From an uncultured delta proteobacterium (GTDB lineage: Bacteria > Myxococcota_A > Polyangia > Polyangiales > Houyiibacteriaceae), in assembly GCA_963699755.1 (NCBI GenBank), contig CAVOVB010000002.1, positions 160,001-224,000 on the forward strand: a stretch of DNA of 64,000 nucleotides, given 5' to 3'. Positions 32,224 to 36,395 of the stretch are shown in pieces. The number at the start of each line of letters is the position of its first letter. Positions within the stretch are counted from its first letter, which is position 1. Below the pieces are notes generated by a model. The model did no database searches. It was given only the letters and a program-made list of their open reading frames with translations, and had not been told where the DNA came from. The position numbers and the translations under genes were made by a program.

Positions 32224-32323
32224 TCTGGGGGGTCATCTGCTGATCAGGCGTGGCGTCGTTGCGAGGCGTGCCGAAAGCTCGCTTCGGGTCGCGTGTGAGG
32301 CGGACTTGCTGTATCTATCAACG

Positions 32324-32530
32324 ATGACCGACGAGGGGGAAACCAGCGAGCTCGATCGCGCTCGGCGCCACTTCCTGAGGGCCACGGCCTACATGGCACC
32401 TGCGATACTCGCGACTATCACGCTGAACAAGGCTCATGCGCAGGCCTCGTGCAGCCCTTCAACCTGTATGCCAGGGGTCTGCAACCCAAACGGCTGTAAC
32501 CCACTGACCTGCATGCCCGCCGGTGGATGA
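32324..32530 (+). CDS. Putative RiPP precursor, 68 aa: Tat-like leader plus (CxPxx)5 core
   Basis: MTDEGETSELDRARRHFLRATAYMAPAILATITLNKAHA-QASCSPSTCMPGVCNPNGCNPLTCMPAGG, directly upstream of radical SAM and PqqD genes. Confidence 0.85.
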   Translation: MTDEGETSELDRARRHFLRATAYMAPAILATITLNKAHAQASCSPSTCMPGVCNPNGCNPLTCMPAGG

Positions 32531-33686
32531 AGCGGGTGGAACCGTTCACGAAGCCACGATGAACGCGACCGGATACTTCTTGCCCGACGACTGGATCCTC
32601 TGGCACAGCGAGGGATCGCTCGAAGCCACGAAGCTGAGCAGCGGAGACCAGATCCGAATCGAAGGCACGCCCGAGCGCGATCCATTGAATAGCGAACTGT
32701 CCGCATCCATTTGGGATTCGCTGGCTCGGTTTGAACCTCTCCTAGGGCAACTTCGAAGACAACTCCAAGAGCGGGCACTTCAACCGCTCACGCGAGAAAC
32801 CGTCTTGCGGGGTTCTGGATGGAAACAGCTATTCGTAGAGCTTACCGCGAAGTGCAACGAGCGATGTGTCCATTGCTATGCTGAATCGTCGCCTGCCCGG
32901 ACGGAGGCGCTTGCCTGGCCGGAGATCAGCAAGGTACTCGAAGATGCGAAGGCGCTGGACTTTGGCCTGGTGCAGTTTACGGGTGGAGATCCTCTGATCA
33001 GCGCCCATTGCGTCCGAGCCGTGGAGTTTGCGAAAGAGATCGGAATTCCGCGCGTCGAGATCTACACGAATGGCCTCGCGCTTCGCGGAAGGATCTACGA
33101 GCGCTTGCGCGAGCTCGCGCCCTCGTTTGCGTTTTCCTTCTACTCACACGATCCCGAAACCCATGACGCCATCACCCAGACCCCAGGTAGTCATGCACGC
33201 ACCGCGCGAGCGATTCGACGCGCGGTGGACGATGGATTGAACGTACGCGTAGGTGTCATCTCGATGGAGCGGAACCAACACGATGCATCGAAGACCTACG
33301 AATATTTGCTGGAGCTCGGCGTGACTGGCAACTCAATCGGTTTCGATCAAGTGCGCGACGTCGGTCGAGGGGACGCCGTACCCATAGAAACCGATACACG
33401 ACCGGCGGGCGTCCGGAGCGGTGGCGTCGAGAGCGCGCGACCACGAAACTTCGGCGGCTCGGCGGCGGTAGGCTACGACGGCACGGTGTACCCGTGCATC
33501 TTCAGTCGGCACCTGCCACTCGGATCGATTCATGACACCAGCCTCCAGGCGATTCTCAGGTCTGCCGAGCCGATCGCCTCGAAAAAGAGAAGCCTACTGA
33601 CGGCCCGCGAACGATGGGGTGCAAAGCTCTCCTGTTGGGAGTGCCAGGCCCGATCCGTACTGCTCGATGGGAGGTGCAATGCCTGA
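32523..33686 (+). CDS. Radical SAM peptide maturase with SPASM/twitch-like C-terminus
   Basis: CNERCVHC, FTGGDP, YTNG, DGTVYPC and CWEC. Alternative ATG start at 32559. Confidence 0.9.
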   Translation: MDEAGGTVHEATMNATGYFLPDDWILWHSEGSLEATKLSSGDQIRIEGTPERDPLNSELSASIWDSLARFEPLLGQLRRQLQERALQPLTRETVLRGSGWKQLFVELTAKCNERCVHCYAESSPARTEALAWPEISKVLEDAKALDFGLVQFTGGDPLISAHCVRAVEFAKEIGIPRVEIYTNGLALRGRIYERLRELAPSFAFSFYSHDPETHDAITQTPGSHARTARAIRRAVDDGLNVRVGVISMERNQHDASKTYEYLLELGVTGNSIGFDQVRDVGRGDAVPIETDTRPAGVRSGGVESARPRNFGGSAAVGYDGTVYPCIFSRHLPLGSIHDTSLQAILRSAEPIASKKRSLLTARERWGAKLSCWECQARSVLLDGRCNA

Positions 33687-33972
33687 TGCTTCCGATCGAC
33701 GCGTGCCCAAGCGCAAAGACACACTCACGCATGAGGTCACCGATACCGACGAAGTCGTGATCTACGACGGCAGCGGTCCGCAATTGCTCGTCTTGAACGA
33801 TATTGCCGCGGGCGTTTGGCTGATGATCGACGGCGCACGAACAGTCGACGACATTACCGCCGAAATCCTGAACCATCTCGAGGCGGAGCCTGCGACGGTG
33901 ACCCGTGACGTGCTCGCGTTCTTGGGCCAGCTCGAGCAACGAAAGCTCATCGCATGGCAAGAGGCAACCTAG
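33679..33972 (+). CDS. PqqD family RiPP recognition element (RRE), 97 aa
   Basis: DEVVIYD...LN..A..VW..IDGARTV..I...I......DV..FL..L....LI pattern; GGAGG RBS. Confidence 0.9.
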   Translation: MPDASDRRVPKRKDTLTHEVTDTDEVVIYDGSGPQLLVLNDIAAGVWLMIDGARTVDDITAEILNHLEAEPATVTRDVLAFLGQLEQRKLIAWQEAT

Positions 33973-34775
33973 AGCAGCACGAGATCTTTCTCTCCGGCCT
34001 GCGTGTTCGCGTACAAAGCAGCTGCACGAGAACGAATCGTTACCTACGACGTCACTGGTCCGCTGCGAAGCTGCCGATGCTGCCGACCGAGGTCAGCTGC
34101 GACATGGAGGTGATCGCCGACGCATCACCTCGAATCATCGTGGATGGCGAAGTGGTCTGGGCCGACGGTGCCGCCGAATATCTGGTCGCTGGTTTCGAGC
34201 AGCGGCTCTATCGCGCGGCGCTCGCGAAGCACCGAGGCCGATTTGCTGTATTTCACGCAGCAGCGCTGGTGTCGGATGGAGCGACTGTCGTTTTCTCCGG
34301 ACCGTCAGGCGCCGGGAAGAGCTCGCTTGCGCTCGCGGCGGTTCGGCGCGGTTGGAAGTATTTTTCCGATGAGTTCGTGGTCACCGACGGCCAGAGCGTG
34401 TGCGGGTGGCCGCGCGCGATTCGCTTTGATCCTACAGAGCCGGGCGCGCCGTGTCCTGACTACCTCGTCGACCTCGATACCGATCAAGATGCCGTGGAGT
34501 CTCCGCAAGACGTTGGGCCACCGTACTACGCCGTCCGCGGCAACGCCTTGCAACGCGTCGCCTGTTCTGCCCGCGAGGTGCGTTTCGTTAGCGTAGAGCG
34601 TGGTACAGATACGACCCTATCCCGCGTCTCAGCGAGTGTCGGCCTGAAGTATTGGATGGAGGCTGCGTTTATCGAGCCAACGATGTCCTTGGGCGCGCTC
34701 GTCGGCGACGGACGGACTTGGCGCGCGTCGTGGCGCCACCCAGAAGAGCTCATCGAGCTGATCGAAACGATATGA
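33954..34775 (+). CDS. HPr-kinase-related P-loop kinase
   Basis: FHAAAL...FSGPSGAGKSSL...YFSDEF (His, Walker A and acidic pair), then GWPR. Confidence 0.8.
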   Translation: MARGNLEQHEIFLSGLRVRVQSSCTRTNRYLRRHWSAAKLPMLPTEVSCDMEVIADASPRIIVDGEVVWADGAAEYLVAGFEQRLYRAALAKHRGRFAVFHAAALVSDGATVVFSGPSGAGKSSLALAAVRRGWKYFSDEFVVTDGQSVCGWPRAIRFDPTEPGAPCPDYLVDLDTDQDAVESPQDVGPPYYAVRGNALQRVACSAREVRFVSVERGTDTTLSRVSASVGLKYWMEAAFIEPTMSLGALVGDGRTWRASWRHPEELIELIETI

Positions 34776-35551
34776 CGGGAAGCAACCCAAGCCTACGATA
34801 TCGATTGCTTCGAGGCTGGGCGCTGCAGAGTCGCAAAGTTCAGTACCTCATGCGTCGAATCGAGGACGCGGTCACCGTTTGGACCGGAGCCATCTTGAAC
34901 GGACTGCTTCGTGACGCCGAAAAAGAAGCCCTGTCAATCGACCTCTACGATGCCTCGTTTCGGCCCGACAACGATCATCAGGGGCTCTATGAATGGGAGC
35001 AGCAATGGTTCGAACGACGCTTGCCAGCTGCTCCAGCGTCCATTTTGATTGGTGCAGCCGGTGCGGGGCGTGAAGTCTGTGCCCTTCGAGAGCTCGGCTA
35101 TCGGGTTCATGCGTTTGAGCCCTCCGCATCGGCTTTTGAGCTCTGTCAGATCAAAGTCGGCTCGGAGTTTGTCGAGCAAGCGAGCTATCAGGATCTCGTT
35201 GCGACGATACTCCGTGGCGAGAGCACGCGACTGCGGCTCGGGAGCGAAGCAAAATTCGATGCCGTGCTGCTGGGCTGGGGGAGTTTCGGACACGTGCTTC
35301 AGCGCGCCGACCGCTTGGAGTTGCTCCGTGCGTGCGACATCCTCGCGCCGACTGGCCCGATTCTCGTGAGTATCTTCGAACCGAACGCCAGAGCCTCGAC
35401 GAATGGGACCTACTACATGCCATGGGGCGGCTTCCTGGTACGGCCTACACCCGAAGAGCTCGAGCAGCACGCGAAGGCCTTGAATCGGCAACTCGTCATG
35501 TCGCTTCGGGCGCCGAGCCCGTACGCCACTTTGATCCCCAACGGCTACTGA
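34772..35551 (+). CDS. Class I SAM-dependent methyltransferase-like protein
   Basis: ILIGAAGAGRE (motif I), HAFEPS and FDAVLLGWGSFGHV. ATGA overlap with the kinase stop. Confidence 0.72.
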   Translation: MTGSNPSLRYRLLRGWALQSRKVQYLMRRIEDAVTVWTGAILNGLLRDAEKEALSIDLYDASFRPDNDHQGLYEWEQQWFERRLPAAPASILIGAAGAGREVCALRELGYRVHAFEPSASAFELCQIKVGSEFVEQASYQDLVATILRGESTRLRLGSEAKFDAVLLGWGSFGHVLQRADRLELLRACDILAPTGPILVSIFEPNARASTNGTYYMPWGGFLVRPTPEELEQHAKALNRQLVMSLRAPSPYATLIPNGY

Positions 35552-36395
35552 ACCGCGTCAAGAGGCGGCGCGCCGCTTCGTCCGCGTGCGCAACGAGCGA
35601 ACGCGAACCCGCTGCCAAGGAGCGATCCAACAGGTGTGGCGTCCACCATCGAGGCGAGCCTGCGTTCGTGCTCGTAGCTAGCCGCACCACCGCGATCACA
35701 ATCCGGTCCCAACGCGAGAGCTCCAATGCGCGATTCGTTGCGCATGCGATGGGGTCTTCGCGAAACGACTCATGGCCGAGCACATAGGCAGCTGCACGCT
35801 GAAGGCCCAACGCCCGAAAATGGGCTCCCAAGGTTTCTGCATCTTCAAGTCGATAGAGGTTTTCCTTCAGCAGCCATCGAATGTCGTCGAGACTCGTGTC
35901 CTGACGAAACGTCCCGCGTCCCTTTACGAAATGACCGATCAAATGCGCTAAGAGGTCTTGATCAGATATCCGTGCGACTGGCGCGGCAAAAAGCGATGTG
36001 TCTATCGCTGCCCGCGAGAAAACGTCATCCGTAGACATGTCGAACAGGCCGTGTGGAAAGAGGTGGTGGTGCACGTCGATGCTGAGCGGCCACGAATCAC
36101 TGGCAAACGTTCTCCCGGCGCTTGAATCCACCGTCGCTTCGAACCCCAGCGCGTGCAGCACCAGGGTCGCCGCTTCGATATCCGAGCTGCGTACCAGGAC
36201 GTCGATGTCGACGAGATCCCGCCGCCCCCGCAAGGCAGGCCACCTCGCCAGCAAGAACGCGCCCTTCAGTGGCATCAACACGATGCCCCGCTCGGCACAT
36301 CCCTCGAAGACTTGATTTGCTAGACCAAGCGCCAGTTCGCCGACGAGCCTGGTGCGAAGGCGGTCTTGAGCAGCGTGGTCCACTAGGGCTATCAT
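35496..36395 (-). CDS. Nucleotidyltransferase family protein (NTP_transf_5-like)
   Basis: LMPLKGA...R.L.DIDVLV...IDVH...H..H...LDDI. Confidence 0.8.
   Translation of the reverse strand: MIALVDHAAQDRLRTRLVGELALGLANQVFEGCAERGIVLMPLKGAFLLARWPALRGRRDLVDIDVLVRSSDIEAATLVLHALGFEATVDSSAGRTFASDSWPLSIDVHHHLFPHGLFDMSTDDVFSRAAIDTSLFAAPVARISDQDLLAHLIGHFVKGRGTFRQDTSLDDIRWLLKENLYRLEDAETLGAHFRALGLQRAAAYVLGHESFREDPIACATNRALELSRWDRIVIAVVRLATSTNAGSPRWWTPHLLDRSLAAGSRSLVAHADEAARRLLTRFSSRWGSKWRTGSAPEAT

Follow-up and report, generated by a model that had tools for sequence, protein, structure and literature searches.

A leader that is probably both RRE docking site and Tat signal in an undescribed radical SAM RiPP family

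INTRODUCTION

RiPP leaders are usually distinct from export signals, and the signals of bufferins and HvfA are described as Sec-type and dispensable for modification (PMC11626156, PMC11252979). Can one leader nevertheless direct both the maturation and the export of a peptide? The question is raised by a short precursor encoded in a 64,000-nucleotide stretch of contig CAVOVB010000002.1 of an uncultured delta proteobacterium (the window, to which all unprefixed coordinates refer). Its leader combines a twin-arginine motif with a YxxP motif lying inside the hydrophobic run that follows, and a preliminary description had proposed that it is at once a Tat signal and an RRE-binding site. The family to which the precursor belongs is real and, as far as the literature was searched, undescribed, an RRE-dependent RiPP variant; judged from sequence comparison, its leader probably serves as both RRE dock and Tat signal. 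No description was found in literature joining Tat, signal peptides or HPr-kinase with RiPPs or radical SAM enzymes, a search that lay mostly outside subscription journals, and the supplement of PMC10288494, covering about 15,000 RRE-associated radical SAM proteins, may include these enzymes.

THE PRECURSOR AND ITS OPERON

The leader and core features reported in the preliminary description are all present in the translation of the precursor gene (Table 1): D-R-A-R-R-H-F-L at residues 11-18, Y-M-A-P-A-I-L at 23-29 and A-H-A/Q at 37-40. The Tat consensus is R-R-x-[FL]-[LI]-[KR] near the N-terminus, and RRHFLR at residues 14-19 fits it. The closeness to S/T-R-R-x-F-L-K that had been pointed out holds for R-R-x-F-L, but the residue preceding the arginines is Ala, not Ser or Thr. 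The core cysteines stand at 43, 48, 53, 58 and 63, and all of them have a Pro at +2. No core shuffle among 200,000 placed Pro two residues after all five cysteines. Among the 95,221 stop-to-stop frames of the genome, the precursor is the sole one with at least three period-5 CxP units; its gene is present as a single copy, and no NCBIfam or Pfam family matches it above cut-off.

About 40 bases 5' of the start (32281-32323) are kept among close relatives. Neither a ribosome-binding site nor a sigma-70-like promoter is evident upstream of the precursor, so that a leaderless start or a regulatory site at 32281-32323 is possible. Metatranscriptomes contain small shares of the locus in 11 runs; in four runs the contig is covered flatly and at a low level over the whole stretch, neighbouring gene included, and this cover is therefore uninformative on expression.

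Stops and starts touch or overlap throughout the order precursor, radical SAM enzyme, PqqD, HprK-like kinase and methyltransferase-like protein. The PF14907 nucleotidyltransferase is convergent on the other strand here and divergent in Zetaproteobacteria. None of the cluster proteins reaches an NCBIfam cut-off, sactipeptide maturase models included, and no MNIO (DUF692) occurs among the six cluster genes, which are assigned otherwise, or among the scanned neighbours. The PqqD protein is the only one in the host genome, and the HprK-like kinase conserves its Walker A residues. The host assembly has a completeness of 100% and a contamination of 9%; three Tat-like genes are nearly duplicated between contigs C1 (about 1829000-1851000) and C7 (about 148000-176000), which is consistent with that contamination.

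Table 1. Features of the precursor and of the surrounding gene cluster (window coordinates)
Feature	Position	Strand	Details and evidence
Precursor peptide gene	32324..32530	+	68-aa ORF: 39-aa leader and 29-aa core
Twin-arginine motif R14-R15-H-F-L-R19, predicted Tat recognition element	32363..32380	+	Homologue counts
Uncharged h-region A20-N35, 16 residues	32381..32428	+	Hydropathy 1.50
Y23-x-x-P26-x-I28, predicted RRE-binding motif within the h-region	32390..32407	+	Motif conservation
A37-H-A39, predicted signal peptidase I site	32432..32440	+	AxA conservation
Core Q40-G68, with Ser42 (predicted kinase site) and five C-x-P units	32441..32527	+	
Radical SAM enzyme, shortened SPASM/twitch-like domain	32559..33686	+	PF04055 and PF13186; alternative GTG start at 32523
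Stand-alone PqqD-family RiPP recognition element (RRE)	33679..33972	+	PF05402
HprK-like kinase	33954..34775	+	TIGR04352, E 3e-12, below cut-off
Class I methyltransferase-like protein, accessory	34772..35551	+	PF08241 weak; NF041820, E 7e-8, below cut-off; frame open from 34652
PF14907 nucleotidyltransferase	35496..36395	-	PF14907, E 1e-20

FAMILY SIZE AND DISTRIBUTION

Searches with the precursor returned 35 close homologues and 90 profile matches, and 295 matches at E<=0.001 among 50%-identity representatives. Keratin_B2_2 matches and long repeat proteins that surfaced in the distant search were set aside as compositional. Since the precursor alignment is too variable for a locus scan, genomes were scanned with the radical SAM alignment instead, so that loci were not selected on the leader, and the best 80 of 139 relatives were kept. 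Among these best 80, 36 carry the title Zetaproteobacteria or Mariprofundaceae/Mariprofundales and the remainder are mostly Myxococcota, with single records titled Gammaproteobacteria, Planctomycetales and Thermoanaerobaculia; the named records nearest to the present locus are uncultured Polyangiales. Of the best 80 loci, 77 encode PqqD and 76 the HprK-like kinase; the nucleotidyltransferase is less frequent (55 loci), and the methyltransferase still less so (22). A precursor was detected in 73. The seven others comprise three with the radical SAM gene at a contig edge, one with a run of N upstream, one whose precursor was missed (a one-Cys Trp-leader type, outside the search pattern) and two, L087 and L101, that are unexplained.

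Several neighbourhoods deserve mention in their own right. Of the 36 Zetaproteobacterial loci, 23 have an MFS gene close by on the opposite strand, which counts against Tat export; none of the 44 others has one. At L101:5992-8203 the radical SAM-PqqD-HprK operon, without a detectable precursor in the locus, is followed by a PhyH-family dioxygenase gene. At L022:2832-5024(+) a TonB-dependent receptor stands directly 5' of the radical SAM gene, and the precursor is found downstream of the operon. Large Stig1-like Cys-repeat proteins are encoded just 5' of short (1-2 Cys) Trp-leader precursors at L069:5669-8383(+) and L140:2932-5316(+). Genes for Wzc-like polysaccharide tyrosine kinases adjoin the cluster at L068:5195-7357, L102:3066-5480, L103:8586-10859 and L150:3419-5548, recalling the capsule-locus setting of LPP clusters.

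JOINT CONSERVATION OF THE TWO LEADER MOTIFS

Non-conservation of RR or YxxP had been named in advance as evidence against a dual leader; both motifs are conserved in the precursors found from the enzyme side. When matches were anchored on RR, followed by an uncharged run and CxP, 81 of 84 had [YW]xxP at RR+9; when they were anchored on [YW]xxP together with Cys, 77 of 79 had RR nine residues upstream. One of the five exceptions is a register shift within an RRR run, and the other four look like shadow frames. RR is present in 110 of the 111 unique profile-found precursors, the remaining one having been mis-anchored by the script.

The same pairing extends to more distant relatives. The best 150 matches were taken, 139 of them of at most 250 residues; 11 proteins longer than 250 aa and P0158 were left out before counting. 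Both motifs stand in register in 126 of the 139 proteins, eight have RR-x-F with the Tyr lost or shifted, three have YxxP without RR, one carries a three-residue insertion between the motifs and one is an unrelated repeat. The eight leaders with an altered Tyr keep their h-region; the three RR-less homologues keep YxxP, and two of these have charged residues in the h-region. The two motifs thus nearly always occur together, yet each can be lost separately, and in sequence terms they behave as separable elements. The natural leader variants (P0151, P0193, P0211, P0212, P0216, P0219, P0225, P0191, P0222 and P0161) comprise one group that keeps R-R-M-F with the Tyr lost or shifted and the three proteins that have YxxP without RR; a search for their gene neighbourhoods gave no match. 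The proposal of a dual leader draws support from motif conservation, from the PqqD pocket and from signal anatomy, and it is weakened by the three of 138 distant proteins without RR and the eight of 138 with a lost or shifted Tyr.

PREDICTED RRE DOCKING

The leader motif [Y/W]xxPx[L/V/I/F/A] has been described as RRE-binding (PMC13381572), and the Y23-x-x-P26-x-I28 of the precursor matches it. In the solved LppB-leader complex the Tyr is contacted by Asp70, and Asn33 holds the Pro kink in place; the D70A exchange weakens YxxP binding and N33A almost abolishes it (PMC13381572). Alignment of the PqqD profile to LppB (9x8z) places N40, D77 and F81 on LppB N33, D70 and F74, the offset of 18 tag residues in the LppB numbering having been set from the residue identities given in PMC13381572. 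N40 and D77 are the most conserved positions of PqqD, with 76 of 77 orthologues retaining each. Replacement of the Tyr-binding Asp, by Ser, is seen only in the PqqD of L101, a single case. No covariation between leader and pocket was seen, and the four Trp-leader loci keep a Tyr-type pocket. Taken together, conserved motif and conserved pocket make it very likely that the RRE binds the YxxP of the leader.

Could the YxxP instead be an incidental part of the h-region of a true Tat signal, with the enzymes recognizing the core as in bufferins and HvfA? In those systems the signal peptide is reported to be dispensable for modification (PMC11626156, PMC11252979), and eight homologues do have the Tyr lost or shifted. 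However, none of 51 Tat-like N-termini, chosen by a purpose-made pattern from the 4,633 predicted genes of the host, has YxxP at this place, so the motif is not a generic Tat feature. The near-invariance of the pocket Asn and Asp also speaks against an incidental YxxP, as does the coincidence that the one Asp-to-Ser PqqD belongs to a locus in which no precursor was found. This explanation is highly improbable, and binding of the motif by the RRE is retained below.

PREDICTED TAT EXPORT

Downstream of the arginines the leader has the anatomy of a signal peptide. The hydropathy of its h-region, 1.50, compares with a median of 1.59 in the 51 host Tat-like N-termini. A strict AxA occurs in 69 of 83 precursors, against a mean of 26 and a maximum of 38 in 2000 shuffles, and its position varies between Y+15 and Y+20 in a family whose cores range in length from 29 to more than 100 residues. 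TatC is encoded by the host and by 48 of the 50 carrier genomes examined (from among the 80 loci), both misses being genomes below 2 Mb; TatC is common in these groups, and its presence therefore supports export only weakly. Two S26 signal peptidases are encoded on host contigs C5 and C8, the cluster itself being on C2. Dedicated alternatives are not apparent: the host genome contains neither PF13471 (lasso B2) nor PF03412 (C39 peptidase), and no lasso B2 protein, lasso cyclase, C39 exporter or S24/S26 peptidase was found among 109 hand-picked proteins from related loci, nearly all of them cluster neighbours and together a part of the neighbours of those loci. An M48 and an M12 peptidase occur once each among these 109. 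Profile models respond faintly. Pfam TAT_signal (PF10518) matches 3 of 64 members weakly (best E 0.083), and TIGR02811 scores the precursor at E 0.054. TIGR01409 does not pick up the precursor, and elsewhere in the host genome it has a single match, which marks the model as insensitive here. Export by Tat and cleavage after A39 are, on these sequence features, likely.

The same evidence has to be read against a look-alike, in which the D-R-A-R-R-x-F-L helix and YxxP form one recognition element for PqqD and the radical SAM enzyme or kinase, and the peptide leaves by another route or is not exported. Ala precedes RR in 106 of 111 homologues and in only 2 of the 51 host Tat-like N-termini, which makes it family-specific, and the near-fixed spacing between RR and Tyr would also suit a single helix bound by a pathway protein, for which the N-terminal domain of the radical SAM enzyme, of unassigned fold, is a candidate. 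The weak Tat profile scores and the three homologues without RR point the same way. A floating AxA well above shuffles, an uncharged run of 16 residues that equals host Tat-like signals in hydrophobicity, a host without lasso B2 or C39 peptidase and the retention of RR where the Tyr is lost speak against it. The look-alike is unlikely, and the Tat signal remains the preferred reading.

One branch departs from the AxA pattern. In 26 of 111 profile-found and 16 of 126 distant precursors an x-x-[GAS]-C stands in place of AxA; examples with x-x-[GA]-C, such as Q-A-G-C and L-S-A-C, include Kofleriaceae-titled records (the branch comprises L065:8969-9166(-), L067:8781-9002(-), L068:9540-9734(-), L138:3071-3340(+), P0049 and P0064-P0089). 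A lipobox usually has a hydrophobic residue at -3. The x-x-[GAS]-C sites are lipobox-like, yet mostly without that residue, and these precursors could possibly be Tat lipopeptides or be cut by signal peptidase I behind a Cys at -1.

THE CORE AND ITS PREDICTED CHEMISTRY

The preliminary description proposed that each five-residue repeat may form one ring or metal ligand; the conserved repeat of the core is CxP rather than a five-residue unit. In the profile-found set 578 of 583 core cysteines belong to a CxP, with the middle residue free, and the distance between cysteines is 5 in 294 of 473 cases, 6 in 104 and 7 in 46. Cysteine at every fifth residue, as first noted, is thus a property of the copy in the window but not a family trait. 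With CxP nearly constant, x free and the spacing variable, each CxP looks like an independent unit. Most cores have 4 to 9 cysteines, odd or even in number, so the earlier argument that an odd number precludes full pairing does not generalize; its conclusion that the cysteines do not serve paired disulfides is better supported by the free cysteine count and the constancy of CxP.

Zetaproteobacterial cores are built differently. They contain S-C-x-P-x-x-C-x-P-C (15 of 40) or C-C-P-C (25 of 40), add Cys-rich or His/Asp/Lys-rich tails, have CxP at only 90 of 416 cysteines and place the first CxP 23-64 residues after the Tyr; the last two points count against the preferred explanation. Precursors with 11-15 cysteines, 105-155 aa and a (V/I)-S-x4-5-C-C-P-C motif often occur two or three to a locus. 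The C-C-P-C type (loci L108, L113, L115, L117, L124, L125, L139, L141-L144, L152 and L157-L160) has the look, by sequence, of small secreted proteins that are rich in disulfides and carry a single modified site; structure predictions for a Zetaproteobacterial precursor were of low confidence. The S-C-x-P-x-x-C-x-P-C type with low-complexity flanks rich in His, Asp or Lys is exemplified by L106:1317-1625, L111:5514-5879, L119:5396-5743, L121:5292-5858 and L123:479-829, and such flanks in precursors of iron oxidizers are suggestive of metal binding.

Outside its CxxxCxxC motif the radical SAM enzyme has only three near-invariant cysteines, C313, C359 and C362 (79, 78 and 78 of 80); a fourth auxiliary Cys, found in about half of the family, is absent here. 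Around residue 144 the usual G-G-E-P is replaced by G-G-D-P in 80 of 80 orthologues, which makes it usable as a family marker. In enzymes of the SkfB type an RRE is fused at the N-terminus. The N-terminal domain here has no clear fold match: it gives no profile match to PqqD, and residues 1-85 taken alone find as their best match an unrelated protein (Z 4.0, rmsd 3.9, 67 aligned). The whole model aligns to SkfB from residue 5, and SkfB is its top match both by sequence and by fold (Z 24.5, rmsd 5.8, 311 aligned, 21% identity). BlsE follows with Z 22.8, and SuiB and the viperins score close. With so low an identity to SkfB and such close runners-up, the chemistry is unreadable from the fold. 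A three-Cys cluster that leaves an open site for the substrate thiol is the supposed mode of thioether-forming enzymes. Given the three near-invariant auxiliary cysteines and the closeness to SkfB, a single unnested thioether in each unit is favoured. For unnested rings of nine members, QmpB offers a precedent (PMC9389541). By analogy, that the enzyme acts once per C-x-P unit and closes a thioether ring within it comes just short of an even chance, and the Pro at +2 would be the first candidate acceptor.

The main rival to thioether chemistry keeps the dual leader and changes the product: the radical SAM enzyme would oxidize the Cys C-beta to a thioaldehyde, which would cyclize to a 5-thiooxazole in the manner of SbtM, and the core would become a series of copper-type ligands resembling the bufferins. 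Thiooxazoles made by radical SAM enzymes are on record (PMC13638132), and bufferins and HvfA are Cys-modified copper binders with signal peptides (PMC11626156, PMC11252979). The freely varying number and spacing of the cysteines would fit, as would the His/Asp-rich tails of several Zetaproteobacterial cores. The closest matches of the enzyme, on the other hand, are SkfB, BlsE and SuiB, and thiooxazole formation is improbable; so is the accompanying role of the Pro at +2 as a recognition turn rather than an acceptor.

CxP is also the first half of the sulfatase signature CxPxR, and an anSME-like enzyme could convert each Cys to formylglycine. The constancy of CxP and the reported action of anSME on the Cys of CXPXR substrates would agree with this, and many anSME substrates are exported. 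The anchoring Arg at Cys+4, however, is found in only 12 of 301 CxP units, which makes formylglycine unlikely from the outset. anSME has two auxiliary clusters that need more than three cysteines, against the three near-invariant ones here, and by fold it ranks 19th or lower (Z 19.6 against 24.5 for SkfB). Formylglycine is thus a very remote prospect, and a thioether within each unit is kept as the working chemistry.

A second modification is suggested by the kinase, which the preliminary description does not mention. In 35 of 43 non-Zetaproteobacterial precursors the residue in front of the first CxP Cys is Ser. Here Ser42 is the third residue of the core and lies 19 residues after Tyr23. LppK is reported to phosphorylate core Ser3, 18 residues after its Tyr (PMC13381572). 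By this analogy it is reasonably likely that the HprK-like kinase phosphorylates Ser42. For the NTP transferase, the LPP product was reported to be unchanged in its absence (PMC13381572).

A MODEL FOR MATURATION AND EXPORT

The pathway may be pictured as follows. In the cytoplasm PqqD would bind the peptide at Y23-x-x-P26-x-I28 and present it to the radical SAM enzyme and the kinase, which would modify the core. Release of PqqD would then expose the h-region, TatBC would read RR, and a housekeeping signal peptidase I would cut after A39, leaving a Gln40 that may cyclize. Tat moves folded substrates, and a core constrained by rings would suit it for that reason. With its site placed within the h-region, a docked RRE would keep the signal hidden until the core has been fully modified; that it acts in this way like a Tat proofreading chaperone is offered tentatively. 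The outcome would be a rigid peptide in the periplasm or at the surface, for which metal binding is plausible.

A broader reading can be entertained only as speculation: a class of Tat-exported radical SAM RiPPs, distributed over Myxococcota, Zetaproteobacteria and further phyla, in which the RRE is also the Tat proofreading chaperone, a stretch of 26 residues governs both maturation and export, the CxP units form a new Cys-Pro ring or metal ligand and the lipobox-like branch is membrane-anchored. That CxP modification in such a class would span the range from 29-residue peptides to mini-proteins with 13-15 cysteines is similarly doubtful.

A dual leader, if true, would show how a cell retains a secreted peptide until it has been modified, and would provide a ready-made tag for modification and secretion. 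The invariant C-x-P points to radical SAM chemistry outside all NCBIfam models. Uncultured myxobacteria commonly carry the family, as do iron-oxidizing Zetaproteobacteria (36 of 80 loci), where exported Cys- and His-rich products could matter for metal handling.

COMPARISON WITH KNOWN SYSTEMS

The nearest relatives by language-model features are clusters named as Cys-Xaa-Xaa-Xaa repeat radical SAM targets (PF27846; score 0.90-0.92), a likeness that, with 130-143 of 256 features shared, is a lead only. We take this family to be TIGR04114. These targets are also Cys-repeat substrates, but their period differs and the invariant Pro is a feature of the present family; the precursor has no HMM match to the repeat models at E<=0.5 in NCBIfam or E<=0.1 in Pfam.

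Lasso clusters of the paeninodin and pseudomycoidin type share the RRE, the HprK-like kinase, the nucleotidyltransferase and a [Y/W]xxPx(hydrophobic) leader. Unlike them, the present host has no B2 peptidase and the scanned neighbours include no cyclase. The LPP system is likewise without a lasso cyclase, and the resemblance to it covers the YxxP leader, a discrete RRE with the same pocket Asn, Asp and Phe, the HprK-like kinase, the NTP transferase and a Ser at core position 3, its cores being variable and 35-200 aa long (PMC13381572). LPP (LppA/B/K/S/D/N), as described there, has its own SpI-like peptidase LppS and an MsbA-like pump (PMC13381572); neither is encoded in the present cluster or among the 109 scanned proteins of related loci. 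Conversely, the radical SAM enzyme, the CxP core, the twin arginines and the h-region set the present family apart from LPP, the main text on which does not contain the terms 'radical SAM', 'Tat' or 'signal peptide' (PMC13381572).

Bufferins and the oxazolin/HvfA group are Cys-modified RiPPs with an N-terminal export signal cut by signal peptidase I (PMC11626156, PMC11252979), as predicted here. They are described as relying on Sec and an MNIO, with a signal dispensable for modification (PMC11626156, PMC11252979), whereas the present cluster has a radical SAM enzyme and a predicted RRE motif within the signal.

The radical SAM enzyme with a SPASM/twitch domain and the Cys-rich core by which sactipeptides and ranthipeptides are recognized are both present. 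The likeness to sactipeptides (SkfB/SKF and the type 2 unnested GggB/QmpB) extends to a short auxiliary domain and to association with an RRE (PMC9389541, PMC10288494). A kinase and a nucleotidyltransferase, a signal-like leader and an invariant Pro two residues after each Cys distinguish the present family from them. With membership features of each missing, the family is not an LPP, a lasso peptide or a bufferin. By analogy it would combine recognition and phosphorylation of the LPP kind with a general export route like that of bufferins and, probably, rings like those of type 2 sactipeptides.
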